Assembly (NCBI RefSeq): GCF_003018255.1
Contig: NZ_CP027440.1
Strand: one strand, 5' to 3'
Length of the DNA: 64,000 nt
Source of the DNA: Escherichia coli
GTDB lineage: Bacteria; Pseudomonadota; Gammaproteobacteria; Enterobacterales; Enterobacteriaceae
Shown here: positions 43,543 through 60,838 of the stretch, piece after piece
Layout: each line of letters opens with the position of its first letter
Numbering within the stretch: position 1 is the first letter of the stretch
The notes under the pieces: model-generated
Databases searched by the model: none
Seen by the model: only the letters and a program-made list of their open reading frames with translations
Told to the model about the DNA's origin: nothing
Position numbers and translations under genes: made by a program

Positions 43543-44268
43543 TTAAATCTCTACGTCGCGGTTGCAATCTTTCGAGTAAATATAGCTGAACGCTTCACCA
43601 CGCCCTACGCCATAACCAGCCTGTAAAGAATAAGCGCCCATAAAGATGTAATCGCCTTTTTTCACCGGGATCCAGTTATTGTCGAGGTTATAAACCCCCT
43701 GACCGGAAAGAATATAGGCACCGTGTTCCTGAACGTGGGTTTCGATATAACCGTGGCTGGCACCTGGTGCAAAAGAGAGGATATGCATGTTCATATCAAA
43801 ACCTAACTCTTTGGGCAGAAAATCCAGCAGAATAACATCGTCCATGCCTTCATAATGAATGCGTTCCAGTTCGCTGGCATTGCCAGAAACCAGCCACGGC
43901 GCATGACCTTCTACCGGAATATAGCGACGCTTATATAAAAAGATTTGGCTGTCTTCGGCCTGGGCGTTAACAAACGTCATTAAGGAGCCTGGCGGGCAAT
44001 AAAGATAGCCACCTTCACTTAAGGTAAATGTTTTCCCTTCGGCTTTGGCAGTGATATTTCCAGAGATCACATACAGGAACGTTTCAATGCCTTCGCCACC
44101 GAAGCCCTGTTGGTTGCCGCCGTTTTGATGCAGTGTGACCAGATAATCAACAAAAGAGGCACCCAGCTTTGGCGTGGAGAGGATTGTCGCGTCACAATTT
44201 TCAAAGCCCGGAATAATATTTTTTACCAGACCGTCTGGTGTTAACAGTGCGAAATTACCGTGTTTCAC
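43543..44268 (-). CDS. allE: (S)-ureidoglycine aminohydrolase with its native start destroyed; the longest ORF restarts at internal GTG (Val21)
   Basis: The cupin ORF matches AllE/YlbA. In-frame codons 2-20 (GYLNNVTGYREDLLANRAI) persist up to 44325. The start-codon position (44326-44328) reads AAG and is preceded by TAA and TGA. Confidence 0.8.
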   Translation of the reverse strand: MKHGNFALLTPDGLVKNIIPGFENCDATILSTPKLGASFVDYLVTLHQNGGNQQGFGGEGIETFLYVISGNITAKAEGKTFTLSEGGYLYCPPGSLMTFVNAQAEDSQIFLYKRRYIPVEGHAPWLVSGNASELERIHYEGMDDVILLDFLPKELGFDMNMHILSFAPGASHGYIETHVQEHGAYILSGQGVYNLDNNWIPVKKGDYIFMGAYSLQAGYGVGRGEAFSYIYSKDCNRDVEI

Positions 44269-44319
44269 AATCGCACGGTTAGCCAGTAAATCTTCGCGGT
44301 AACCGGTGACGTTATTTAA

Positions 44320-44332
44320 ATATCCCTTTTAT
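44320..44332. repeat. attL core
   Basis: ATATCCCtTTTAT. A 7-bp perfect identity (ATATCCC) is shared with attR, 13 bp with one mismatch. Confidence 0.7.
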
Positions 44333-44410
44333 CAAATAGTGTTTTTTGCTGTTTCATAATGTTTCAGGTCGTTCATTATGTTTTTGATTATCAACGGATT
44401 TGCCATTTTT

Positions 44411-44450
44411 CTTGTTTCAGCTTGTTTCACGTTGTAGCGCTTTGTGCAAC
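44411..44450 (+). promoter_or_regulatory. Four 10-bp-phased TTGT(nn)CA repeats on the attL-side arm
   Basis: cTTGTTTCAg cTTGTTTCAc gTTGTagcgc tTTGTGCAac. Confidence 0.45.
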
Positions 44451-44453
44451 GAT

Positions 44454-44479
44454 CGGTGTAGTTAATGGTGTAGTCAATT
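44454..44479 (+). repeat. Tandem arm-type site, probable integrase arm-binding (left copy)
   Basis: CGGTGTAGTTAATGGTGTAGTCAATT is identical to 58414-58439. Confidence 0.55.
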
Positions 44480-44500
44480 GTGATGACCGGAATCAAAATT

Positions 44501-45730
44501 ATGAGCAGAGCACTTAACAAACTGAGTGACACACAGCTAAGGAAAATCAACGGCACACCCGCCCAAAAAACAGCCTTTCTTAATGACGGTGGAAACCTGA
44601 GCGTCAGGCATTCAACCAGCGGCCTTTTAACCTGGTATTTCACATACAGGGCCGGAACGGGAAGAGGGACACAACCTGAACGCGTTAAGCTGGGAAATTA
44701 TCCCGATCTGAGCCTGAAAGCAGCCAGGGAAAAAGCCGCACAGTGTCGCGCATGGCTGGCTGAGGGGAAAAATCCACGCTATGAACTGAATTACACCATG
44801 CAGGAAGCGTTAAAGCCTGCAACGGTTGGCGATGCGCTCACCTACTGGCTTGAGTCGTACGCAAAGGAAAAGCGCACAGATTACGAATCACTGAAAAGCC
44901 GGATCAATAAAAACATAATCATCAAAATTGGTGCTATGCCGCTGGATAAATGCGAGCTACGGCACTGGCTGGCCTGTTTTGATCAGGTGGCAAAGCGAAC
45001 ACCTGTTACTGCCGGATTCTTGCTACAGACATGCAAACAGGCGCTTAAATTCTGCCGTAGGCGGCGCTATGCAATCAGCAACGTTCTGGACGATCTGAAC
45101 GTGGCGGACGTTGGGAAAAAACCGGATATAAGCGAACGTGTCTTAAGCACCAAAGAACTGGGCGAGTTATTGCAGGCGCTGGATAAAAAAATATTTTCTC
45201 CTTACTACGTCGCGTTAATCCGCCTCCTGATTGTCTTCGGAGCCAGGACGGTAGAACTGAGGTTATCGGAGATCAGCGAGTGGGATTTTACCGAAATGCT
45301 ATGGACCGTTCCGAAGGAGCACAGCAAAACGAAGGTTGCAATATTCCGGCCCATACCGGAAGCGATCCTGCCGTTCGTCACGCGGCTGGTGGAGCAGAAC
45401 AGGCACACGGGCTTATTACTGGGGGAAGTGAAACAGGAGGCTAGCGTATCGCAGTACGGCAGATTAGCGCACAGGAGGCTAAAACACCTTCAATGGTCAT
45501 TGCATGACATCCGGCGCACCTTTACAACGATGCTGAATGATTTGGGCGTGGATCCTCACGTCGTGGAGCAGCTTACAGGTCATCAGATGCCAGGGATGCA
45601 ACGAGTCTATAACCACTCCCGTTATCTCGATGCGAAACGTGATGCGCTGGATATGTGGACGGAGCGGTTAGGGATACTGGCGGGAGCACATGAAAACGTA
45701 ACCACGCTACCAGTAACCAGAATAAAATAA
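44501..45730 (+). CDS. int: Tyrosine integrase, P4-like (N-terminal arm-binding domain)
   Basis: MSRALNKLSDTQLRKI...LSVRHS..G.LTWYFTYR N-terminus typical of P4-type integrases. C-terminal HDIRRT...GH....Y catalytic region. The ORF track begins 7 codons earlier at GTG 44480. Confidence 0.9.
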   Translation: MSRALNKLSDTQLRKINGTPAQKTAFLNDGGNLSVRHSTSGLLTWYFTYRAGTGRGTQPERVKLGNYPDLSLKAAREKAAQCRAWLAEGKNPRYELNYTMQEALKPATVGDALTYWLESYAKEKRTDYESLKSRINKNIIIKIGAMPLDKCELRHWLACFDQVAKRTPVTAGFLLQTCKQALKFCRRRRYAISNVLDDLNVADVGKKPDISERVLSTKELGELLQALDKKIFSPYYVALIRLLIVFGARTVELRLSEISEWDFTEMLWTVPKEHSKTKVAIFRPIPEAILPFVTRLVEQNRHTGLLLGEVKQEASVSQYGRLAHRRLKHLQWSLHDIRRTFTTMLNDLGVDPHVVEQLTGHQMPGMQRVYNHSRYLDAKRDALDMWTERLGILAGAHENVTTLPVTRIK

Positions 45731-46094: not shown

Positions 46095-46283
46095 GTGTTA
46101 AGCACTGATCGGTTTATACGTGAAAAAGAATGCGAAAAGCTAACAGGCCTTAGCCGCTCATGCCGCTACCGCCTGGAAAAGGCCGGACAATTCCCATCAC
46201 GTCGTAAACTTGGCGGGCGTTCTGTTGGCTGGTCTTTATCTGAGGTTTTGGCCTGGAAGGATAGCTGCAAGGCAGTTCACTAA
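46095..46283 (+). CDS. alpA: AlpA-family (MerR-like/excisionase-type) regulator
   Basis: 62-aa ORF with a GTG start after AAGGGGG. The pattern RFIREKECEKLTGLSRSCRYRLEKAGQFPSRRKLGGRSVGWSLSEVLAW is typical of AlpA. Confidence 0.85.
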   Translation: MLSTDRFIREKECEKLTGLSRSCRYRLEKAGQFPSRRKLGGRSVGWSLSEVLAWKDSCKAVH

Positions 46284-47753: not shown

Positions 47754-48053
47754 ATGAAACTTAAATATTCTGGCTTAACTGCCAGTGGCAAAACTCGCAC
47801 TAAATTCATGCGCGGTGATATTTACCGCGACCAGTACGGCGGCACGGTAATGATTAAGGGCGTGGAGGAACGGCGCGTAACTTACCGCCGTGAAGGTTAC
47901 GAATATGATTGCGTGATGCCCGTTTATCAGTTCGACCGTGATTTTTCTCTGGTGCAGGCAGCGCAACGCAGCAAGCCCACCAGCAGGGAGAAAGCACGCG
48001 CCAATATTCAGGAAATAAAAAAGATGCTTAACGTATTCAGGGGTAAAAAATGA
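47754..48053 (+). CDS. DUF4222-like small protein
   Basis: 99 aa. The pattern YRD.YG..V.I.GVE..RVTYRREGY...CVMP...F.R.F recalls DUF4222 of P4-like islands (from memory). Confidence 0.55.
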   Translation: MKLKYSGLTASGKTRTKFMRGDIYRDQYGGTVMIKGVEERRVTYRREGYEYDCVMPVYQFDRDFSLVQAAQRSKPTSREKARANIQEIKKMLNVFRGKK

Positions 48054-49804
48054 AACTGGCACCGAACGTAAAACAGCAGTCACGCGGCATAAAACACAAA
48101 GAAACAGAAGTCATTATTTTTGCGGGTAGTGATGCCTGGTCACACGCAAAACAATGGCAGGAACATGACGCGCGTATGGCCGGAGATAATGAGCCTCCTG
48201 TGTGGCTTGGGGAGCAGCAGTTATCAGAACTGGATAAGCTGCAAATTGTGCCGGAAGGCAGAAAATCCGTGCGCATATTCAGGGCCGGATATCTTGCACC
48301 AGTAATGATAAAGGCGATTGGTCAAAAGCTGGCGGCGGCTGGTGTACAGGATGCAAATTTTTATCCTGAGGGTATGCACGGCAAGGAGGTGCAGAACTGG
48401 CGCGAATACCTGGCCCGTGAACGCCAGAATCTTTCTGATGGTCTGGTCATTGAGCTTCCGGTAAAGCAAAAGGCGCAACTTTCGCAGATGGCGGACAGTG
48501 AGCGCGCGCAGCTGCTTGCCGATCGCTTTGATGGCGTTTGCGTACATCCTGAAAGTGAAATTGTTCACGTATGGCGCGGCGGGGTATGGTGTCCGGTCAG
48601 CACAATGGAACTTAGCCGCGAAATGGTGGCGATCTATTCAGAGCACAGGGCCACTTTCAGCAAGCGCGTAATCAATAACGCCGTGGAAGCGTTAAAAGTT
48701 ATTGCCGAACCAATGGGCGAGCCGTCCGGCGATTTGCTGCCGTTCGCCAATGGTGCGCTTGACCTGAAAACGGGGGAATTTTCCCCGCACACGCCGGAGA
48801 ACTGGATCACCACGCACAACGGCATTGAGTACACGCCACCAGCACCAGGGGAGAATATCCGCGACAACGCGCCAAACTTTCATAAATGGCTTGAGCACGC
48901 AGCCGGAAAAGACCCGCGCAAGATGATGCGTATATGTGCCGCGCTGTACATGATTATGGCGAACCGGTACGACTGGCAGATGTTTATTGAGGCCACCGGA
49001 GACGGCGGGAGCGGTAAAAGTACATTCACACACATAGCCAGCCTTCTGGCAGGGAAACAGAACACGGTAAGCGCTGAAATGACATCGCTTGATGATGCTG
49101 GTGGACGTGCGCAGGTTGTCGGGAGTCGTCTTATCGTCCTGGCTGACCAGCCGAAATATACAGGCGAAGGAACGGGCATCAAGAAAATCACGGGCGGCGA
49201 CCCCGTGGAAATTAACCCGAAATATGAGAAGCGTTTTACGGCGGTAATCAGGGCGGTGGTGCTGGCTACCAACAATAACCCGATGATATTCACCGAACGG
49301 GCCGGAGGTGTGTCACGTCGTCGCGTAATTTTCCGTTTCGACAATATCGTCAGTGAGGCCGAAAAAGACAGGGAGCTACCGGAAAAGATTGCGGCTGAAA
49401 TCCCTGTCATTATCCGCCGATTGCTGGCGAACTTTACCGACCCTGAGAAGGCACGGGCTTTACTACTGGAACAGCGTGACGGTGATGAAGCTCTGGCAAT
49501 AAAGCAACAGACGGATCCGGTTATTGAGTTTTGCCAGTTCCTGAATTTTCTGGAGGAAGCACGCGGCCTGATGATGGGCGGCGGTGGCGATTCAGTGAAG
49601 TACACGACCAGGAACAGCCTTTACCGCGTCTATCTGGCGTTTATGGCATACGCAGGCAGGAGCAAACCGCTAAACGTGGCTGAGTTCAGCAAGGCCATGA
49701 AGCCAGCGGCGAAAGTTTACGGGCATGAATATATTACGCGAAAAGTTAAGGGAGTAACGCAGACCAACGCAATTACAACAGACGATTGCGACGCGTTTTT
49801 ATAA
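48050..49804 (+). CDS. P4-family primase / SF3 helicase replication protein (pri-rep)
   Basis: 584-aa ORF with Walker A GDGGSGKST and Walker B LIVLAD. D5-N-like region upstream. The iteron field follows immediately. Confidence 0.9.
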   Translation: MKLAPNVKQQSRGIKHKETEVIIFAGSDAWSHAKQWQEHDARMAGDNEPPVWLGEQQLSELDKLQIVPEGRKSVRIFRAGYLAPVMIKAIGQKLAAAGVQDANFYPEGMHGKEVQNWREYLARERQNLSDGLVIELPVKQKAQLSQMADSERAQLLADRFDGVCVHPESEIVHVWRGGVWCPVSTMELSREMVAIYSEHRATFSKRVINNAVEALKVIAEPMGEPSGDLLPFANGALDLKTGEFSPHTPENWITTHNGIEYTPPAPGENIRDNAPNFHKWLEHAAGKDPRKMMRICAALYMIMANRYDWQMFIEATGDGGSGKSTFTHIASLLAGKQNTVSAEMTSLDDAGGRAQVVGSRLIVLADQPKYTGEGTGIKKITGGDPVEINPKYEKRFTAVIRAVVLATNNNPMIFTERAGGVSRRRVIFRFDNIVSEAEKDRELPEKIAAEIPVIIRRLLANFTDPEKARALLLEQRDGDEALAIKQQTDPVIEFCQFLNFLEEARGLMMGGGGDSVKYTTRNSLYRVYLAFMAYAGRSKPLNVAEFSKAMKPAAKVYGHEYITRKVKGVTQTNAITTDDCDAFL

Positions 49805-51160: not shown

Positions 51161-51374
51161 CTGAGCGGATCGGCATATTTTACCCGAACTGAATCATGAT
51201 TATTCTCGCCCGTGGTGCCAGGACGCTGGGGCCACTTTCCCGCCTGTTAATGTGCTCGCCAATATTCATTACCAGGCGGGAAAACGATCGGTGCGATTGC
51301 TGATTTCCTTATGAAAAACGGTTGAGTGTTTGCCGCGTCCTGGAGTTCCTTACTTAACCCCAGGACTTTTTTTT

Positions 51375-52532
51375 ATGCCGAGAATAATCGAATTACGCCA
51401 GCAGAAAACCGCCATTAAAAATCAGATGCGCGACATGCTGGAGAACGCTGAAAAAGAAAACCGCAGTCTTAACGATGCTGAGGGCGCAAAATTTGACGAA
51501 TTACGCGCTAAAGCTGAATCCCTCGATAAAGACATTTCCCGCCTTGAAGCCATTGCAGACGAAGAGCGCAGCAAGCCAGGTAAAAGCAGCCAGACCACTG
51601 ACCCCGCAGAACTACGCAGCTACATTCTGACAGGTGAAACCCGCGCATTAAGTACAGGCGTTCCCGCTGATGGTGGTTATACCGTTATCCCCGAACTGAA
51701 CACCGAAATCATGCGAATGCTGGCGGATGAATCCACCATGCGCCGCATCTGTACCGTGAAAAAAATCAGCAGCAACGAGTTTAAGCAGCTTGTTTCCGCT
51801 GGCGGTGCGACCGTTAACCACGGTGAAGAGGGTAAGGCACGCGAACAGACCAGCACCCCGCAGATTAACGAGGTGAGCATTAAGCTGTATCCGGTCTATG
51901 CGTACCCGCGCACCACACAGGAAATCGTGGATTTTTCCGATGTGGACATCCTTTCATGGCTGACGGGTGAGATTGGCGACACCTTCACGGAAACCGAAGA
52001 AAGCGATCTGGTTGTGGGCGACGGTGACAAAAAAGCAAAAGGTTTTTTATCCGTACCCCGTGCAGAGAAGAACGACAAAGAGCGTGATTTTGGTACGTTG
52101 CAGGTAATTAAACCTTCCGAATCTCTGGCGTGGACATCTGCGGACCCGCTGATCGACCTGAAATTTGCATTACGTAAAAAATACCGCAAAAACGCGGTCT
52201 GGGTGGTTAACTCCACGACGGCGGCAAAACTCCAGAAGGTGAAGAACGCGAACGGTGATTACATCTGGCGTGACCGTTTACAGGCGGGTGATCCTGATAC
52301 GTTGCTGGGCCTTCCGGTCGAATATCTGGAGTTTATGCCTGATAACGTTATTGCCCTGGGTGACTTCAAACGCGGTTACTACATTGTTGATCACGAAACA
52401 GGTGTTCGCACCAGACCGGACAACCTCACAGAGCCGGGCTTCATCAAAATTTTCACGCAGAAATATTTAGGCGGTGGCGTGGTGGATTCGAACGCGATCA
52501 AGATTCTGGAACTGCCACAGGACGACGATTAA
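51375..52532 (+). CDS. HK97-fold major capsid protein with N-terminal coiled-coil (delta/scaffold-like) domain
   Basis: 385 aa from ATG 51375. N-terminus IELRQQKTAIKNQMRDMLENAEKENRSLNDAEGAKFDELRAKAESLDKDISRLEAI, followed by a Phage_capsid-like body. Confidence 0.9.
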   Translation: MPRIIELRQQKTAIKNQMRDMLENAEKENRSLNDAEGAKFDELRAKAESLDKDISRLEAIADEERSKPGKSSQTTDPAELRSYILTGETRALSTGVPADGGYTVIPELNTEIMRMLADESTMRRICTVKKISSNEFKQLVSAGGATVNHGEEGKAREQTSTPQINEVSIKLYPVYAYPRTTQEIVDFSDVDILSWLTGEIGDTFTETEESDLVVGDGDKKAKGFLSVPRAEKNDKERDFGTLQVIKPSESLAWTSADPLIDLKFALRKKYRKNAVWVVNSTTAAKLQKVKNANGDYIWRDRLQAGDPDTLLGLPVEYLEFMPDNVIALGDFKRGYYIVDHETGVRTRPDNLTEPGFIKIFTQKYLGGGVVDSNAIKILELPQDDD

Positions 52533-52542
52533 CAGCATACAG

Positions 52543-52571
52543 AAGGGGCTTAAAAGCCCCTTTAGTGTTTT
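52543..52571 (+). terminator. Strong hairpin with T-rich tail between the capsid and protease genes (possible attenuator)
   Basis: AAGGGGCTT-AA-AAGCCCCTT followed by TAGTGTTTT. Confidence 0.4.
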
Positions 52572-53144
52572 ATGGGTGAAAAAATTATGAAGAGTATGGA
52601 AATCCGGTCATCGGAAATCACCACCAGCGGAGCCGGTACGCTGACGGGCTACGTTGTTCGCTGGGATAAGCTTTCAGAACTGTTATGGGGTGAGTTTTAC
52701 GAAAAATTCCAGCGGGGGGCGTTTACTGAATGGCTTGCGGCGGGTAATGACGTTCGCGGCCTGTATGAGCATGACCACAGCATGTTACTGGGGCGCACCC
52801 GTTCCGGCACGCTGAAACTGGAAGAGGACGAAACAGGGTTACGCTTTGAACTGACCCCACCGGATACCAGTACAGGGCGCGACGTTATCGAACTGGTTAA
52901 GCGTGGGGACATCTCGGGGATGAGCTTTGGCTTTCGCTCCCGTAAGGATGTATGGGATACCACAACAGATCCATGCGTGCGCACCGTGCTGGTGGCGGAA
53001 CTGTACGAAATTACCGTTACATCGGTACCGGCTTACCCCGATTCCGGCGTGGAGCTGGCCCGCCGTTCCCTGTATGAGCAGCACCCCGAAAAAATGCCGC
53101 GTGCGGATAATCGCCGCTGGTGGGTGGATTTAGCGGGGGTGTGA
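52572..53144 (+). CDS. HK97-family prohead protease
   Basis: 190 aa. The pattern G.L.GY...W...S......F.E.F..GAF........DV..L..H......LGR...GTL.L.ED..GL.F...L is typical of this family. Alternative starts at 52587 and 52596. Confidence 0.85.
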   Translation: MGEKIMKSMEIRSSEITTSGAGTLTGYVVRWDKLSELLWGEFYEKFQRGAFTEWLAAGNDVRGLYEHDHSMLLGRTRSGTLKLEEDETGLRFELTPPDTSTGRDVIELVKRGDISGMSFGFRSRKDVWDTTTDPCVRTVLVAELYEITVTSVPAYPDSGVELARRSLYEQHPEKMPRADNRRWWVDLAGV

Positions 53145-53145
53145 T

Positions 53146-54357
53146 ATGTGGCCTTTCAGAAGAAAAAAAGAGCAGCGCAGCATGACGCTTGATAAGTTTA
53201 TGGCGCTGGCTGGCACATCGAACACGGGGGCGGGTGAGTACGTATCATCGGGGACAGCGGAATCACTGCCCGCCGTCATGAACGCCGTGACGGTCATCTC
53301 TGAGGCGGTGGCTACCATGCCGTGTTACCTGTACCTGGTACGCAATGAGAAGGGGAAGGAGGCCCGCGAGTGGCTTGATTCTCATCCGGTCGATCACATC
53401 CTCAACGAGCGCCCGAACGCGTGGCAGACTCCCTACCAGTTTAAGCGAATGATGATCCGCCACTGCCTGTTAAACGGTAATGCTTATGCGGTGATTCAGT
53501 GGGGGCGTGATGGTTTTCCGGTGGCTTTACATCCTTACCCGCCGCAGTCGGTGAACGTGGAGCAGACAGGTGATCATAACTGGCGCTACTGCATCACTGA
53601 CGCCTACACCGGAAACACCCGCAACTATTTACCGTGGGAGGTTCTCCACCTTCGTTACTCCACGGATGACGGTTTTATGGGGCGCTCACCTGTAACCATC
53701 TGCCGCGAATCGCTGGGGCTTGGGCTGGCCCAACAACGCCACGGCGCGAGCGTGATGCGTGATGGCATGATGGCGGCAGGGGTTATCACGTCAGGCGAAT
53801 GGCTGGACGGCGTGAAGGGCAAACAGGCATTAGCCGCACTGGAACGCTACAAAGGGGCCAGAAACGCCGGAAAAACGCCCATCCTTGAAGGGGGGATGAG
53901 CTATCAGCAGCTGGGCATGAGTAATCAGGATGCCGAATGGCTGGCCTCCCGTCGCTTCACCATTGAAGACATCGCCCGAATGTTCAACGTCTCGCCGATT
54001 TTTTTGCAGGAATACAGCAACAGCACCTACAGCAACTTCAGCGAGGCAAGCCGCGCATTTCTCACCATGACGATGCGCCCGTGGCTGGCGAACTTTGAGC
54101 AGCAGATAAAAAACGCCCTGCTGGTGGCCTCGCCTGTACCTGGTATCCGGTATCAGGTGGAGTTTGACAGCGCGGACCTGTTACGGGCCACACCTGGCGA
54201 ACGCTTTGCCACCTATGAACGCGGCATCAAATCCGGCGTTATGTGCCCGAACGAAGCCCGCGAACGTGAAGGGCTGTCCCCGCGTGATGGTGGTGATGAG
54301 TTCAGCCAGGCATGGAAACAGGAAGTAAAAATCAGCGAGGGAGAAAAACCGGAATGA
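53146..54357 (+). CDS. HK97-family portal protein
   Basis: 403 aa, adjacent to the protease and similar to phage portals. Confidence 0.9.
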   Translation: MWPFRRKKEQRSMTLDKFMALAGTSNTGAGEYVSSGTAESLPAVMNAVTVISEAVATMPCYLYLVRNEKGKEAREWLDSHPVDHILNERPNAWQTPYQFKRMMIRHCLLNGNAYAVIQWGRDGFPVALHPYPPQSVNVEQTGDHNWRYCITDAYTGNTRNYLPWEVLHLRYSTDDGFMGRSPVTICRESLGLGLAQQRHGASVMRDGMMAAGVITSGEWLDGVKGKQALAALERYKGARNAGKTPILEGGMSYQQLGMSNQDAEWLASRRFTIEDIARMFNVSPIFLQEYSNSTYSNFSEASRAFLTMTMRPWLANFEQQIKNALLVASPVPGIRYQVEFDSADLLRATPGERFATYERGIKSGVMCPNEAREREGLSPRDGGDEFSQAWKQEVKISEGEKPE

Positions 54358-54692
54358 ACATAGGGCGACTGCGTGACAGGATAACGATTCAGACCCTGAA
54401 ACAGACCAGGGATATAACCGGCGAAATACTCGAAACGTGGGAGGACGGTCACACACTCTGGGCAAGCGTGAACATGGTCAGCAGCAAGGAGGCCATTTCA
54501 TCGGGCGCAGAGCTGGCGATTGGTACCGTAAGGATCTGGATACGGTACCGGAAGGACATCAACGCCACCTGCCGGATAAAGGTCAGTACGGGGCCGCTGG
54601 CGGGGCGTGTACTGAATATCATCGGGCAGCCGCTGCCGGATGCCGCCAGGACACGCCTTGAAATTCTTTGTCGTGAGGGCGCGGAAAAATGA
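54354..54692 (+). CDS. Head-tail joining / head closure protein
   Basis: 112 aa starting MNIGRLRDRITIQ, typical of the head-tail joining family. ATGA overlap with the portal gene. Confidence 0.8.
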   Translation: MNIGRLRDRITIQTLKQTRDITGEILETWEDGHTLWASVNMVSSKEAISSGAELAIGTVRIWIRYRKDINATCRIKVSTGPLAGRVLNIIGQPLPDAARTRLEILCREGAEK

Positions 54693-54985
54693 CAGAAGAA
54701 CTTATCACCCTGGAAGAAGTGAAACTCCATTGCCGCATCGATGGCGACGATGAAGACCAGTTAATCAGCGGATACATTGCCGCATCGCTTGAGGCGTGCC
54801 AGATACACATAGGCAGGCGCTTTGATGACGGGCTGGAGTTCACGCCAGCCATAAAGATTGGCTGCATGATGTTTATCGCTCACCTGTATGAAAATCGCCA
54901 GATTGTCGCGGATAACGCAAAAACACGCGTACCCATGACGATAGGCGCACTCTGGACGGCTTACCGTGATGTGGGGGTGTACTGA
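54689..54985 (+). CDS. gp6-like head-tail connector protein
   Basis: 98 aa starting LITLEEVKLHCRIDGDDEDQLISGYIAAS, typical of this family. Confidence 0.8.
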   Translation: MTEELITLEEVKLHCRIDGDDEDQLISGYIAASLEACQIHIGRRFDDGLEFTPAIKIGCMMFIAHLYENRQIVADNAKTRVPMTIGALWTAYRDVGVY

Positions 54986-55425
54986 TGCCGTGGCAACCAT
55001 TAAGACGATGCACAGAACCAGGCTGTAACAGGCGCGTTAAATCCGGCAAGTGTGAGGAGCACAGGCGGGCGGCATGGCGTGCAGAGGATGCCAGACGAGG
55101 ACACCGCCGCGCGCGTGGATATTCCAGACAGTGGGACAAATACCGCGCCATGTATCTGAGTAAAAACCCGTTATGCGTGCGATGCCTTGAGAAGGGGATA
55201 TATACGCCCGCCGTGGTGGTGGATCACATTATCCCGATTAATGGCGGTGATGATGTTCTCTTCTGGCCCGAATGGAACCATCAACCATTGTGCCAGGCGT
55301 GTCATAACCAGAAAACGAAATGGCTTGATCCGGCAACAAAAAGCAAGCGTGCCGCAGGTGGATTTCGTGAAGAGGAAGAACGGGCTGCTAACCGCAATAA
55401 CTGGATGTATGACGCTGATGAATGA
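54985..55425 (+). CDS. HNH endonuclease (packaging-associated)
   Basis: 146 aa with two Cys pairs and DHIIPINGG....WNHQPLCQACHNQKT. Located directly upstream of terS. Confidence 0.9.
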   Translation: MPWQPLRRCTEPGCNRRVKSGKCEEHRRAAWRAEDARRGHRRARGYSRQWDKYRAMYLSKNPLCVRCLEKGIYTPAVVVDHIIPINGGDDVLFWPEWNHQPLCQACHNQKTKWLDPATKSKRAAGGFREEEERAANRNNWMYDADE

Positions 55426-55591
55426 GCGGGAACAAAACCGCCTTATCCGTGGACTTATAAGGCAGCGTGACGCATGGAAGACACAGGAAACAGGGCATAA
55501 AGATAAAGCGTCAGGACGCGCAGAACGCATCACAGCGAAGCGATTAACCGACCGTGACCGCGAGGTTATGGAATGTTTCCGCAATCGCTGA
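55409..55591 (+). CDS. Possible 60-aa basic protein
   Basis: ATG overlaps the HNH gene end. No family was recognised; weak evidence. Confidence 0.3.
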   Translation: MTLMNEREQNRLIRGLIRQRDAWKTQETGHKDKASGRAERITAKRLTDRDREVMECFRNR

Positions 55592-55713
55592 TGAGGCTGT
55601 ATGACGGGGTGGGGGGCGTTTTCAGGACAAACCCGACCCCGCCGGGCACCGAACGCCTCCTCAAATTTTTATGCACGGGAATTTTTTGAAAAATAATCTG
55701 GCGAAAAATAAGC
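55592..55713. other. Candidate cos region between HNH and terS
   Basis: 122-bp non-coding gap. It has a G-rich block GACGGGGTGGGGGGCG (55603-55619), a partly complementary GACCCCGCC, and then an AT-rich tract. Confidence 0.35.
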
Positions 55714-56070
55714 ATGGCAAGACCACCGAAAGCCCCCGCCTACCTGGATGATATCGCCGTGAAGCAGTGGCGGGAAAAATCTAGGCAGCTTGCGGAACGG
55801 GGAGACCTGACCCCCGCCGACTGGAGCAATCTGGAACTGTATTGTGTCAACTACTCCATTTACCGGAAAGCCGTTGCAGACCTTGCGGCGCGCGGGTTCA
55901 GCATTGTTAACAGTCAGGGCGGCGAGAGCAGAAACCCCGCATTAAGCGCAAAATCCGACGCTGAAAGAGTGATGATAAAAATGGCCTCTTTGCTCGGTTT
56001 TGACCCGATAAGCCGCCGTAAAAATCCACCGGAAACAGAAGAAGAGGACGAGCTTGACCGCCTGGAATAA
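55714..56070 (+). CDS. Terminase small subunit (P27 family)
   Basis: 118 aa. The pattern PKAP.YLD..A...W.......E.G.LT..D...LE.YC..Y..YR.A matches this family. Confidence 0.85.
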   Translation: MARPPKAPAYLDDIAVKQWREKSRQLAERGDLTPADWSNLELYCVNYSIYRKAVADLAARGFSIVNSQGGESRNPALSAKSDAERVMIKMASLLGFDPISRRKNPPETEEEDELDRLE

Positions 56071-57715
56071 GTACGCAGAAGACGTAAAAACGGGCAAAAT
56101 TCCGGCCTGTAAACGGCTGAAACAGGCCGTTAAACGGTACTTTTCGGACCTTGAAAGCCCCCTTTACACGTTCGATCGTGAGGTTGTGGAGCGGTTTATT
56201 GCCTTTTCCAGGGTGTGCCCGCACGTAAAAGGGCCGATGCGTGGCAGACCCATTGAGCTGGAGCCGTGGCAGCAGTTCGCCTTTGCGTGCATCCTCGGCT
56301 TTAAGGTTAAGGCCACCGGACGGCGCAAATACACGAGCGCCTTTATCGAAGTGCCGCGCAAAAATGCGAAATCCACGACCGCCGCGATTCTGGCTAACTG
56401 GTTTCTGATTATGGAGAACGGGCAGCAGGATATTTACACCGCAGCGGTGAGCCGTGACCAGGCGCGGATCGTTTTTGATGATGCGCGTCAGATGTGCCTT
56501 TTATCCCGACCGTTACGCAGGCGGGTGAATATTCAGGCCCACAAGGTGATGCACCCGAAAAGCAACAGCCTGTTAAAGCCGCTGGCAGCAAAAGCGGCAA
56601 CCATCGAGGGAACAAACCCCAGCCTTTCCATCGTGGACGAATACCACCTACACCCCGATAACGGCGTTTATTCCGCGCTTGAGCTGGGGATGGGCGCACG
56701 TCCCGAAGGGCTGTTATTTGCCATTACCACATCGGGCAGTAACGTCGTTTCAACCTGTAAACAGCACTATGATTATTGCTGCCAGATCCTGGACGGCGAA
56801 GAGGTCAACGATTCAATTTTTGTGCTGATTTACGAGCTGGACGACGAAAACGAGGTTGATGATCCGGCGATGTGGATAAAGGCTAACCCTAACATCGATG
56901 TTTCCGTGGATCGTGAAAAACTGGCCTCAACCATCCAGAAAGCGCGGGGTATTCCGTCGCAATGGGTGGAGATGATGACAAAGCGATTTAATATCTGGTG
57001 CCAGGGGGCTACCCCGTGGATGGGTAACGGCGCATGGGCTGAGTGTGCCGGAACGTTCACGGAGGAAGATTTACACGGGCAGGAGTGTTACGCGGGGCTG
57101 GACTTATCATCAACCAGCGATATTTCCAGCGTGTGCTATGCCTTTCCGGTCGGTAAAAATATCATGCTGGTTTCCCGTCATTATCTGCCGGAGTTCCAGC
57201 TACAGAACCCCGCCAATAAAAACCGCGCTGTCTATCGCCAGTGGGCTAAAGCGGGCTGGATACGCACAACGCCAGGTGACTGCATTGATTACGACCGGAT
57301 CAGAGATGACATCATGCAGGATGCGGAGAAATTTAATATCAGGCTGGTGGGCTTTGATACGTGGAACGCCACGCATCTCAGGACGCAATTACAGGGGGCT
57401 GGTTTTGAGGTGGAGCCGTTCCCGCAAACCTACCTCAGATTCAGTCCGGCGGCGAAATCGTTCGAAGTTTTTGTTAACCGCAGGGTGATTGTGCATCGTG
57501 GCGATCCGGTGTTGTCCTGGTCGATGAGTAACGTCGTGATGCAGAGTGACGCGAACGCCAATATCAAGCCGAACAAGAAAAAATCACCGAACAAGATAGA
57601 CCCGAGCGTAGCGGCGCTGATGGCGTTTGGTACATTCCAGGCAGAGCATGAGGATTTTGCTTTTGATATAAGCGACAGCCACCGCCAGAAACTGGAAGAA
57701 TTTAGCGGGGTGTAA
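56054..57715 (+). CDS. Terminase large subunit
   Basis: 553 aa with a TTG start after AGAGGA. Contains an ATPase region (VPRKNAKST, IVDEYH) and a C-terminal nuclease region. Confidence 0.9.
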   Translation: MTAWNKYAEDVKTGKIPACKRLKQAVKRYFSDLESPLYTFDREVVERFIAFSRVCPHVKGPMRGRPIELEPWQQFAFACILGFKVKATGRRKYTSAFIEVPRKNAKSTTAAILANWFLIMENGQQDIYTAAVSRDQARIVFDDARQMCLLSRPLRRRVNIQAHKVMHPKSNSLLKPLAAKAATIEGTNPSLSIVDEYHLHPDNGVYSALELGMGARPEGLLFAITTSGSNVVSTCKQHYDYCCQILDGEEVNDSIFVLIYELDDENEVDDPAMWIKANPNIDVSVDREKLASTIQKARGIPSQWVEMMTKRFNIWCQGATPWMGNGAWAECAGTFTEEDLHGQECYAGLDLSSTSDISSVCYAFPVGKNIMLVSRHYLPEFQLQNPANKNRAVYRQWAKAGWIRTTPGDCIDYDRIRDDIMQDAEKFNIRLVGFDTWNATHLRTQLQGAGFEVEPFPQTYLRFSPAAKSFEVFVNRRVIVHRGDPVLSWSMSNVVMQSDANANIKPNKKKSPNKIDPSVAALMAFGTFQAEHEDFAFDISDSHRQKLEEFSGV

Positions 57716-58370: not shown

Positions 58371-58400
58371 CTTGTGTCTATTTGTTCCACGTTGTTTCAT
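58371..58400 (+). promoter_or_regulatory. Three 10-bp-phased TTGT repeats on the attR-side arm
   Basis: cTTGTGTCTA tTTGTTCCAC gTTGTTTCAT. Confidence 0.45.
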
Positions 58401-58413
58401 ACAGTGCACCGAA

Positions 58414-58439
58414 CGGTGTAGTTAATGGTGTAGTCAATT
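58414..58439 (+). repeat. Tandem arm-type site (right copy)
   Basis: CGGTGTAGTTAATGGTGTAGTCAATT is identical to 44454-44479. Confidence 0.55.
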
Positions 58440-58512
58440 TGCGATTTTTGGCACTTTTTGTAGTGCGGGTTATTTAATTAAATCAATGTGTTATTGAAAA
58501 TAAGTTATAGAT

Positions 58513-58525
58513 ATATCCCATTTAT
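58513..58525. repeat. attR core; retains the orphaned allE start (ATG GGA TAT on the minus strand)
   Basis: ATATCCCaTTTAT. The minus strand reads TAA GGAGTTATAA ATG GGA TAT immediately after the allC stop. Confidence 0.7.
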
Positions 58526-58531
58526 AACTCC

Positions 58532-59767
58532 TTATTTCTGCCAGGCAAGTTGATAAAGCATGAGTGCCAACGTTTTGACCCCTTCGGCAAGGTCGGTAAT
58601 ATTGGTGCGTTCCGCCGGGTTATGGCTGATCCCGTTGATGCTGGGAATGAAAATCATGCAGGTCGGCACGCGAGGCGCGAAAATTTGCGCGTCGTGCCCG
58701 GCACCACTGTGCATTACCCGGTAGTTCTGTTTTTCACTTTCACACAATTCTGTCAGGGTGGCGACCAGCTCCTTATTCATCGGCACGGGTTCTTCGTCCA
58801 TCCATAAATCGATATCAATACCAATGTCCATTTCATCGCAAATCGCCCGCATGTCGTTTTCTAACTGCTGGGTGAAATCGCGCAGCACGGCAGCGTCGGT
58901 ATGACGACAATCAATGGTGAACGTGGTTTTACCCGGTACCACATTCACCGTATTCGGACGCGGCTCCACCTTGCCAAAGGTAAGCACCAGCGGGTCGCCC
59001 ATCTTTTTCGCTTTTTCGATCGACTGATGGCAAATGCGACTGAAAGCGTAAACCGTATCACGACGATAACCCATCGGCGTGGTGCCTGCATGGTTTGATT
59101 CGCCGTTCAGCGTCACCGTATAACGACGCTGCCCGACAATTGCATTCACCACGCCAATTGACTGCCCATTACTTTCCAGCACACAGCCCTGTTCGATATG
59201 CAGTTCGACAAAGGCTTTAATATCCTGACGCGGAGTTAGTGGGGCGTTCGGCAGAGTAAATCCGCAAGCCTTCATCGCATCGACAAAACTATTTCCTTTG
59301 GCATCACAGATATTCCGCACGTCGTCAGGATTCGCCAGCCCAAAGATATTTTTACTGCCCCAGAAGACATACGGGAAGCGGCTGCCTTCTTCTTCTGCCA
59401 TCGCCACCACTTCGACCGTACGTAACGGCGCGCCGTATTGCGTTTTCAGCCAGTCAATTGCCAGCCACGCCGCCAGCGCACCGAATTGCCCGTCGAGGTT
59501 ACCGCCGTTAACCACGGTATCGATATGCGAACCGCTCAGAACCACTTCCTGTGGATATTCGGTGCCACTCAGGCGACCGTATAAATTCCCCACTTCATCG
59601 AAACGTGTTTCCAGCCCGCTTGCTGCCATTCTTTTTTTAAACTGCTGCTGAGTTTCCAGCCATTCCGGCGAATAAAGTAAACGGGTCATCCCACCCGCTG
59701 GGTCAGCGCCAAAAGAGGAAAGCCAGGGCAGCGTTTCTTCTATGGCTTGACGGAAATGTGTAATCAT
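58532..59767 (-). CDS. allC: Allantoate amidohydrolase
   Basis: M20 peptidase family. MITHFRQAIEE start gives 411 aa. Confidence 0.95.
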   Translation of the reverse strand: MITHFRQAIEETLPWLSSFGADPAGGMTRLLYSPEWLETQQQFKKRMAASGLETRFDEVGNLYGRLSGTEYPQEVVLSGSHIDTVVNGGNLDGQFGALAAWLAIDWLKTQYGAPLRTVEVVAMAEEEGSRFPYVFWGSKNIFGLANPDDVRNICDAKGNSFVDAMKACGFTLPNAPLTPRQDIKAFVELHIEQGCVLESNGQSIGVVNAIVGQRRYTVTLNGESNHAGTTPMGYRRDTVYAFSRICHQSIEKAKKMGDPLVLTFGKVEPRPNTVNVVPGKTTFTIDCRHTDAAVLRDFTQQLENDMRAICDEMDIGIDIDLWMDEEPVPMNKELVATLTELCESEKQNYRVMHSGAGHDAQIFAPRVPTCMIFIPSINGISHNPAERTNITDLAEGVKTLALMLYQLAWQK

Positions 59768-59788
59768 AAGAAAGTCCTGTCTCAATAA

Positions 59789-60838
59789 TTATTGCGCAAA
59801 GGGATTTTTCGTTTCGTATGACGTGTTATAAAGCGCGTCGGAAATTAAATACTGGTAAATATCATCAACAATTTCGATGCCTTCGACGGCGGCTTTGCGT
59901 TGTTTAATATCCTGATCCTGTCCGGGATAATAAACCTGATTAAAACCGGGCGCGGGGGTAATGGCATTTAATTCGCGCATGGTCTGGCTAAGATGTTGAC
60001 GGAATAATTCGCTGGAGGAGAAAAAGTTCGGATTAATAACGATATGTAATTGCCCCAAATTACGCCCGGCGTGTAAATCGTCATACATCGAACTAACCTG
60101 TCGCCCGAACGGTAAGCCGAGTAAGACGCCTGAGAGGACGTCAATCATCATCATCAGGCCATACCCTTTCGGTCCGGCGGCAGGGAGCAGGGCGTTAACT
60201 GCAAATGGATCGGTTGTTGGTGCTCCGTTTTTATCGACCGCCCAGGTATCCGGGATAGACATATTACGCGAGCGGGCGTCGAGCACTTTTCCCCATGCCT
60301 GTACGGTAGTCGCCATATCAAAGGTAAGGATCTCGTCGCCTTCTCCCGGCGCGGCAAAGGTCAGTGGGTTAGTACCGTAGTAAATTTCCGCGCCGCCAAA
60401 CGGCACCACCATTGGATCGGACTGGCACATCGAAATGCCAATTAACCCGGCGCGAGCTGCCTGCTGCACAAAATAAGAGATTGCGCCGCTGTGACCCATC
60501 CGGCTGATACCGACCACCGCAACGCCATTTTGCTGGGCGGTTTTGATGGCATGTTCCATACCCATTTTCGCCGCGACCTGTCCGGCGGCATTGTCGGCAT
60601 GTAAAATTGCCGAGCACGGCCCGGTTTCCTCAAGACGAAACTCCGGTTCGCGGTTGGTGCCGCCTTTTGAAATGCGTTCCGCGTAGTATTCCACGCGCAC
60701 CGCGCCATGAGAGTGGATCCCTCTGGCATCGGCGTAAACCAATACTTCAGCCACGGTTGCAGCGTGCTCACGTTTTAACCCAGCCTGGCAGAGTTTATTC
60801 TCAATTAGCTGGTGGAGTGTTTCCCGACTGATTTTCAT
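59789..60838 (-). CDS. allD: Ureidoglycolate dehydrogenase
   Basis: 349-aa ORF matching AllD. Confidence 0.95.
   Translation of the reverse strand: MKISRETLHQLIENKLCQAGLKREHAATVAEVLVYADARGIHSHGAVRVEYYAERISKGGTNREPEFRLEETGPCSAILHADNAAGQVAAKMGMEHAIKTAQQNGVAVVGISRMGHSGAISYFVQQAARAGLIGISMCQSDPMVVPFGGAEIYYGTNPLTFAAPGEGDEILTFDMATTVQAWGKVLDARSRNMSIPDTWAVDKNGAPTTDPFAVNALLPAAGPKGYGLMMMIDVLSGVLLGLPFGRQVSSMYDDLHAGRNLGQLHIVINPNFFSSSELFRQHLSQTMRELNAITPAPGFNQVYYPGQDQDIKQRKAAVEGIEIVDDIYQYLISDALYNTSYETKNPFAQ

Follow-up and report, generated by a model that had tools for sequence, protein, structure and literature searches.

Integration of a capsid-forming phage-inducible chromosomal island at the allE start codon of Escherichia coli probably silences the gene

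The analyzed stretch of DNA (the window) comprises 64,000 nucleotides (nt) of Escherichia coli (NCBI RefSeq assembly GCF_003018255.1, contig NZ_CP027440.1). In the window, the allantoin catabolism gene allE is separated from its operon partners allC and allD by a 14-kb insert and has no start codon. The locus raises the question of what was inserted, why the start codon was lost, and whether allE was inactivated or placed under a reversible switch, as the original prediction proposed. The answer given here, which is held with good confidence as a whole, is that a capsid-forming phage-inducible chromosomal island (cf-PICI) was integrated at the allE start, that allE was thereby cut off from its start codon, Shine-Dalgarno (SD) sequence, and promoter and is likely silent, and that any restoration of the gene is a by-product.

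Both junctions were read on the minus strand. At the right end (attR), positions 58531-58513 read GGAGTTATAA ATG GGA TAT, beginning 10 nt past the allC stop codon, and are followed by island sequence. At the left end (attL), positions 44334-44308 read TGA TAA AAG GGA TAT TTA AAT AAC GTC and continue in frame into allE, down to its stop at 43543. The original prediction had given the same reads, including the 10-nt distance, and had noted that an A from the island stands where ATG has its T, with two stops immediately ahead; all of this was borne out. The junctions and the adjoining host genes are composed as follows.

43543..44328, minus strand: allE remnant, with AAG for ATG as codon 1; codons 2-261 and the stop codon are intact.
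44311..44319, minus strand: host core half-site TTAAATAAC, equal to allE codons 4-6, forming an imperfect dyad around the attB overlap with the allC-side GTTATAAAT.
44320..44326, minus strand: attL copy of the overlap GGGATAT, holding the G of the former ATG and codons 2 and 3; placed as the shared identity block.
44327..44335, minus strand: island-derived core half-site TTGATAAAA (TTTTATCAA on the plus strand), conserved in allE-, tqsA-, and phoQ-site elements.
58513..58519, minus strand: attR copy of the overlap GGGATAT, placed by the junction read and in-silico excision.
58513..58531, minus strand: orphaned allE translation start (SD GGAG, ATG, and codons 2-3), placed by the attR read and the empty-site comparison.
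58532..60838, minus strand: allC (stop codon TAA at 58534-58532) and allD (59789-60838), the upstream operon genes, still joined to the promoter.

The crossover was located by comparison with an unoccupied site. In the island-free E. coli strain AST216 (L015), the empty site is GGAGTTATAAATGGGATATTTAAATAAC, and the ATG there is the annotated allE start, directly after allC and allD. The AST216 AllE has the same N-terminus as the protein of PDB 1RC6 (YlbA, 261 amino acids [aa]). Alignment with an island-free allC-allE junction, suggested earlier as a check, thus gave the native start just past allC, as claimed. Three-way comparison set the breakpoints at the 7-bp repeat GGGATAT (44326-44320 and 58519-58513), the sole block common to attL, attR, and the empty attB, in line with the predicted crossover within this motif. 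Compared with island-free E. coli, the insert between allC and allE was 14,193 bp long, and when the halves were joined in silico, a 261-aa AllE was obtained, all 261 residues of which were identical to AST216 AllE. The 7-bp repeat is not significant by itself; the weight rests on the empty-site comparison and on the identical junction in 12 independent complete genomes.

The loss of the start codon most likely follows from the geometry of the site. The cf-PICI has most likely integrated by site-specific recombination catalyzed by its tyrosine integrase, with the allE translation-initiation region as attB and strand exchange within the central 7 bp. The ATG of allE then straddles the edge of the overlap: GGGATAT begins with the G of this ATG, whose A and T lie in the host half-site. 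After integration, these two positions would come from the island half-site (...AAAA), giving AAG preceded by TGA TAA. At the left junction, the island base adjoining the overlap (within 44327..44335) indeed replaces the T of ATG, the half-site also brings in the in-frame TGA TAA, and AAG was found in 13/13 copies (the 12 carriers and the window). The ATG would accordingly be lost because it straddles the overlap boundary and because the island half-site is fixed in the integrase family; the same conservation of the half-site is seen in supplementary file 5 of PMC10111431. A strain-specific mutation to A at the ATG was considered as well and rejected, because all 13 copies have this base and the half-site containing it is conserved at other att sites.

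The site was then followed across E. coli. The allE-island junction was detected in 12 complete genomes of 5,426, and the same 12 hold the allC-island junction; the attL in all of them reads ...TTGATAAAAGGGATAT|TTAAATAAC. An intact allC-allE junction was found in 5,316 of 5,342 genomes. The carriers originate from several countries and several hosts, their allE alleles differ (12-24 single-nucleotide polymorphisms relative to AST216), their integrases are 89.5-100% identical, and their islands range from 10.4 to 15.1 kb with differing gene sets. All 12 detected occupied sites hold PICI-type elements. Since the junction is identical despite the diverse alleles, integrases, and islands, repeated integration is indicated, and on these comparisons the allE junction is a genuine, rarely occupied attB. 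When one genome per GTDB species was searched, the attL junction gave no match in other species.

A one-off illegitimate or secondary-site integration in this strain, or an assembly artefact, could be suspected from the mere 7 bp of shared identity and from the very few genomes in which the site is occupied. This explanation is scarcely credible, given the 12 complete genomes with identical attL and attR around different islands and allE alleles, and given the attB dyad architecture, which is common to the other sites of the family.

Some further observations were made on the carriers. Codon 12 of allE (44293-44295) is GAT (Asp) in 12/12 carriers and GAA (Glu) in the window, AST216, and PDB 1RC6. 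A 72-nt native junction with GAT was found as an exact match in at least 1,468 of 5,335 genomes, so at least 27% of genomes have the Asp allele. Asp12 is not required for integration, because the window has Glu, and its association with carriage is probably due to phylogenetic structure. Spread of the island by homologous recombination of its flanks, which the shared Asp12 brought to mind, was rejected: divergence among the allE alleles sets in at nt 63, and the islands differ. The intact junction was absent from 26 of the 5,342 genomes, 12 of which are explained by this island family and 14 are not; in one of the latter, CP131_Sichuan, only 94 nt of the query were matched. In AR_0085 (L020, 1098-11748), another PICI type of about 11.2 kb occupies the allE site; it encodes a RepA-family helicase, a major capsid protein, a head decoration protein, and a connector, and has no portal and no terminase. 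The allE site is therefore not limited to EDL933-type cf-PICIs. The island of E300010 (L019) is a deleted 10.4-kb cf-PICI derivative with an SSB pseudogene.

What remains of allE is a nearly unchanged coding sequence that has been detached from its expression signals. Between the remnant and the AST216 allE, 2 of 786 nt differ; the protein of the remnant is identical to that of AST216 at 260/260 residues past codon 1 and closely matches PDB 1RC6 over residues 2-261 (E = 4e-178). The gene order glxK / allE-allC-allD is the native one, judging by the relatives of the window and an island-free genome. In E. coli, allD-allC-allE form one operon transcribed from allDp, a promoter upstream of allD that depends on AllS and works only under anaerobic conditions (PMC12535856). 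With the island integrated, allE lies 14.2 kb from allC, without its ATG, its SD sequence, or allDp, its only known promoter; the junctions and the gene order here agree with the original prediction, which had described allE as split from allD-allC by 14 kb and deprived of its 5' end, ribosome-binding site, and operon promoter. The longest canonical open reading frame (ORF) left is 43543..44268 on the minus strand (241 aa), starting at the GTG of codon 21. This is the start that had been named as the next usable one (Val21, 44268) with no obvious SD sequence, and both the ORF list and the sequence agree. No SD-like sequence was found ahead of codon 15 (CTG) or codon 21 (GTG). Codon 21 is GTT in three carriers and in AST216, the closest island-free allele, so this start is not conserved. 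A consensus scan of the allE strand at 44268-44700 found no sigma-70-like promoter, and the sole minus-strand promoter match (44244-44215) lies inside allE, downstream of codon 21. Judging from these sequence features, an integrated island most likely means that no AllE is produced.

Two carriers have further lesions in the pathway: allE is frameshifted in AST85 (L014, 815-1557), and allC has an internal stop in E300010 (L019, 217-1452). This decay is compatible with relaxed selection. AllE was originally placed at the last step of allantoin nitrogen assimilation; it is instead the third enzyme of the trunk pathway, in which AllB, AllC, and AllE act in series to yield ureidoglycolate, and AllD, AllFGH, and AllK follow (PMC12535856; PMC11326118).

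At the right end, the orphaned allE SD sequence and ATG lead a 13-codon ORF, MGYIYNLFSITH* (58513-58470, minus strand), which enters the island. Transcription from allDp would also enter the last genes of the island in antisense, and a terminator scan detected no terminator-like site on the minus strand at this end.

The insert is a cf-PICI, i.e., a phage satellite, because its gene content matches the published definition of cf-PICIs (10.1101/2022.09.08.507074). Its main genes are listed below.

44501..45730, plus strand: tyrosine integrase of 409 aa, divergent from allE; Pfam Arm-DNA-bind_3 (7e-18) and Phage_integrase (3e-16).
46095..46283, plus strand: AlpA-family regulator (PICI activator, excision factor); Pfam Phage_AlpA (5e-18).
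48050..49804, plus strand: primase/replication protein (D5_N, DUF5906); Pfam.
51330..57715, plus strand: capsid and packaging module, identified by Pfam and by annotation of relatives with the Prokaryotic Genome Annotation Pipeline (PGAP).

The integrase, alpA, and primase genes all lie at the island's left end and point rightward. The capsid and packaging module encodes a major capsid protein (HK97-type), an S78 prohead protease, a portal protein, head closure and connector proteins, an HNH protein, TerS, and TerL. Relatives annotated with PGAP additionally encode Icd-like, DUF4222, SSB, PerC, head-closure, and connector proteins. Genes for tail or lysis functions were seen neither among the ORFs of 44.3-58.5 kb nor in these annotated relatives. 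The cf-PICIs, with EcCIEDL933 as the prototype, have the same order of int, alpA, primase/rep, capsid, prohead protease, portal, connectors, HNH, TerS, and TerL, are likewise devoid of tail and lysis genes, and are about 14-15 kb in size. Relatives with at least 80% island coverage and ~93-96% nucleotide identity were found in 217 of the 5,426 complete E. coli genomes. The window copy lies in allE, whereas most close relatives lie in tqsA, which is thereby divided into two pieces annotated as pseudogenes; others lie between roxA (ycfD) and phoQ.

An ORF antisense to the 5' end of int (44332-44643, minus strand) shares the frame of allE and stops at the TGA TAA before AAG. At the equivalent place in a tqsA-site element (L002, 4006-4188, minus strand), PGAP annotates a 60-aa hypothetical protein. 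The ORF is probably spurious, although it reads out of the island toward allE.

The attachment sites consist of a 9-nt half-site, a 7-bp overlap, and a second 9-nt half-site. On the allE strand, attB is GTTATAAAT-GGGATAT-TTAAATAAC, an imperfect dyad, and attP is TTGATAAAA-GGGATAT-ATCTATAAC; the four inverted core-type half-sites are GTTATTTAA, GTTATAAAT, GTTATAGAT, and TTGATAAAA. Both island arms, at 44327-44500 and 58390-58512, carry a doubled arm-type motif.

44455..44479, plus strand: doubled arm-type motif GGTGTAGTTAATGGTGTAGTCAATT in the int-proximal arm, ~144 bp from the overlap centre; a candidate arm-binding site of the integrase.
58415..58439, plus strand: second doubled arm motif GGTGTAGTTAATGGTGTAGTCAATT, co-oriented with the first, ~89 bp from the overlap centre; the repeat is 80% identical over 75 nt.

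A comparable doubled motif is present in helper-embedded PICIs (HE-PICIs; PMC10111431). In tqsA-site relatives, two copies of GGTGTAGTCACT take the place of GGTGTAGTTAATGGTGTAGTCAATT. This 26-mer is given as the 'att core' of EcCIDi14 in Table S1 of PMC6092414, which suggests that one PICI integrated into, or recombined with, the arm of another.

In an alignment of the int-proximal junctions, the ~175 nt from TTTTATCA to the int start codon were 90-97% identical in allE-, tqsA-, and phoQ-site elements. The differences were found in the 7 nt beside this arm, and the host half-sites beyond the overlap were again alike among the three sites.

allE site: ATATCCC by the arm (plus strand), host half-site GTTATTTAA.
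tqsA site: AACAGCA by the arm (plus strand), host half-site GTTAAGAAT.
phoQ site: GGACATA by the arm (plus strand), host half-site GTGAAGTAT.

Published attL alignments show the same arm beside further differing blocks at smrA and thiM (PMC10111431). The integrases are not sorted by site: that of the allE-site element L011 is 94.4% identical to a phoQ-site integrase and 90.5% identical to another allE-site one. Across the allE, tqsA, and roxA-phoQ sites, identities are 87-95% (aa), and the window integrase is 89-95% identical to those of other allE-, tqsA-, and phoQ-site PICIs.

The classical E. coli PICIs at tqsA (EcCI042 and EcCIK1516) and at ycfD(roxA)-phoQ (EcCICFT073) (PMC6092414 Table S1; PMC10111431 supplementary file 5) belong to the same integrase family as the window element (87-94% aa identity) and have an int-proximal arm and a doubled arm motif near-identical to those of the window, with the same core layout. 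The differences are in the overlap, which on the gene strand is GGGATAT at allE, TGCTGTT at tqsA, and TATGTCC at roxA-phoQ, and in the position of the cut, which falls in the start codon itself at allE, 48 codons into tqsA, and in the intergenic spacer at roxA-phoQ. Integrases and arms that are nearly identical are found in tqsA and roxA-phoQ next to other overlaps, which suggests that the 7-bp attP overlap, and not the integrase protein, determines the choice of site. It looks as if the integrase family had been naturally retargeted among at least three chromosomal genes by overlap swaps; integration in this family would then be programmable. This is better supported than a role of the island in gene integrity.

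In the site-affinity (saf) variants of lambda, which Weisberg et al. are said to have described in 1983, target preference reportedly follows the identity of the attP and attB overlaps, with the integrase and arms constant. The PICI series is alike in that the identity of a 7-bp overlap would steer the target while integrase and arms are unchanged; it differs in being natural, in covering at least three to six chromosomal sites, and in being deduced from genomes, not from recombination assays. The overlap-homology principle is restated in PMC10111431.

The original prediction had also remarked that most integrases targeting coding sequence restore the gene with a duplicated end. This is true in general, but not of this family, which splits tqsA into two pseudogene pieces (PMC6092414, Table S1); like the window island, the tqsA elements interrupt a protein-coding gene and supply no replacement end.

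It remains to be weighed whether the insertion silences allE for good, has little effect, or acts as a switch. In active lysogeny, or regulated gene integrity, known from the Listeria comK prophage and from skin and SPbeta of Bacillus subtilis, a mobile element interrupts a host gene, and its precise excision restores that gene. The island at allE resembles these systems to that extent; it differs from them in that no sign of an excision cue tied to allE was found, in that the element is a presumably helper-dependent satellite, and in the decay seen in two carriers. The prediction of such a switch would have the island excise when allantoin nitrogen is needed, persist as an episome, and reintegrate later. 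It can draw on the perfect allE that precise excision would restore, on the intact remnant ORF in the window and in 11/12 carriers, on the low-level spontaneous excision and circularisation of a related E. coli PICI (PMC6092414), and on the fact that regulated gene integrity is an accepted concept, proposed for PICIs within prophage late genes (PMC10111431). However, PICI excision and replication hang on AlpA, which is switched on by a helper phage (10.1101/2022.09.08.507074; PMC6092414), and in the prototype EcCIEDL933, induction, excision, and packaging need the helper phage via AlpA (10.1101/2022.09.08.507074). By analogy, we infer that the window island would be helper-dependent too, a situation that normally ends in lysis. 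The island showed no signal related to allantoin, AllS, AllR, or ArcA. Integrases and arms of this family also occupy unrelated targets (tqsA, roxA-phoQ, cspD-clpS, and others), so the choice of target looks mechanical; the insertion is present in only 0.2% of genomes; and the secondary inactivating mutations in allE and allC of two carriers would seem to be the opposite of what a maintained switch predicts. A regulated switch is accordingly considered highly improbable. The reading in which PICIs at allE serve as a reversible gene-integrity element for allantoin catabolism, with carriers AllE-negative during integration and AllE regained by spontaneous or cue-dependent excision, is likewise very unlikely.

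A near-neutral insertion would leave a shortened AllE, made from CTG codon 15 or GTG codon 21 by an unrecognised outward promoter in the arm; alternatively, ureidoglycine might decay spontaneously and AllE be dispensable. In its favour, carriers have a 247-aa AllE in the PGAP annotation, most of the remnant ORFs are undamaged, and the alignments of distant PDB homologues begin only at about residue 18-21, which may place the first ~20 residues outside the conserved core. Single-sequence AlphaFold2 modelling of AllE, run for residues 1-20, was unusable (mean pLDDT, the predicted local distance difference test score, 38.9). Such an outcome is nevertheless distinctly unlikely: an SD-like sequence before codons 15 and 21 and a promoter-like site upstream on the allE strand are both missing, the GTG of codon 21 is GTT in the three carriers and the closest island-free allele, residues 2-20 are conserved in the Enterococcus homologue 1SEF, and a K-12 ΔallE mutant has a measurable phenotype, namely a lag that is lengthened after 24 h of nitrogen starvation, much as in ΔallB (PMC7417836).

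Several points weigh against the silencing of allE by a mobile cf-PICI as set out above. PGAP annotates the remnant as an intact 744-nt allE from codon 15 (CTG; 247 aa) in 11/12 carriers (e.g., L001 16999-17742), and the remnant ORFs are otherwise undamaged in the window and 11/12 carriers, which might mean that some function is left, that the insertion is recent, or that excision restores the gene from time to time. The promoter scan covered the sigma-70 consensus only, and the cleavage positions were placed from identity blocks. The excised attP (TTGATAAAAGGGATATATCTATAAC) had no match in IMG/VR viral contigs, and a 23-nt version of it had none in JGI metagenome contigs.

On balance, the allE insertion is most likely a simple gene inactivation and not a regulated switch. 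Excision would be driven by AlpA after induction by a helper phage, and the restoration of allE would be a by-product of satellite mobilisation or of rare spontaneous loss. A related PICI is reported to excise spontaneously, so rare revertants, cured of the island and with allE perfect again, can be expected; they would arise by loss of the element, not by regulation. The original prediction that AllE depends on excision or on read-through from the island stands in its first part, as precise excision restores the gene in silico. Read-through is implausible, because int is on the opposite strand and divergent from allE, and because a transcript cannot supply a start codon.

Much of the setting has been described before: cf-PICIs and the integrases they encode, the sites at tqsA and ycfD-phoQ, integration that disrupts a gene and brings no replacement end, and regulated gene integrity. 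The PICI sites listed in PMC6092414 Table S1 and PMC10111431 are tqsA, ycfD-phoQ, yejM, cspD-clpS, smrA, yicC, thiM, and hpt; allE (ylbA) is neither in that table nor in the supplements of PMC10111431, and a literature search for PICI with ylbA or allC returned nothing relevant. E. coli cf-PICIs use six attB sites (10.1101/2022.09.08.507074), and allC/allE may be among them.

The site at allE is one where a PICI probably knocks out a host metabolic gene, and for a clear reason, the start codon lying at the boundary of strand exchange. The physiological effect is probably minor and limited to roughly 0.2% of the sequenced E. coli. Annotation is affected as well: pipelines score the decapitated allE as intact in 11/12 carriers, and metabolic reconstructions would consequently include AllE wrongly. 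If the gene-integrity reading were true, a nitrogen-scavenging pathway in gut E. coli would be gated by a phage satellite. The overlap series of allE, tqsA, and roxA-phoQ provides a natural experiment on how tyrosine integrases gain targets, and it suggests a simple way of retargeting PICI-based delivery vehicles.

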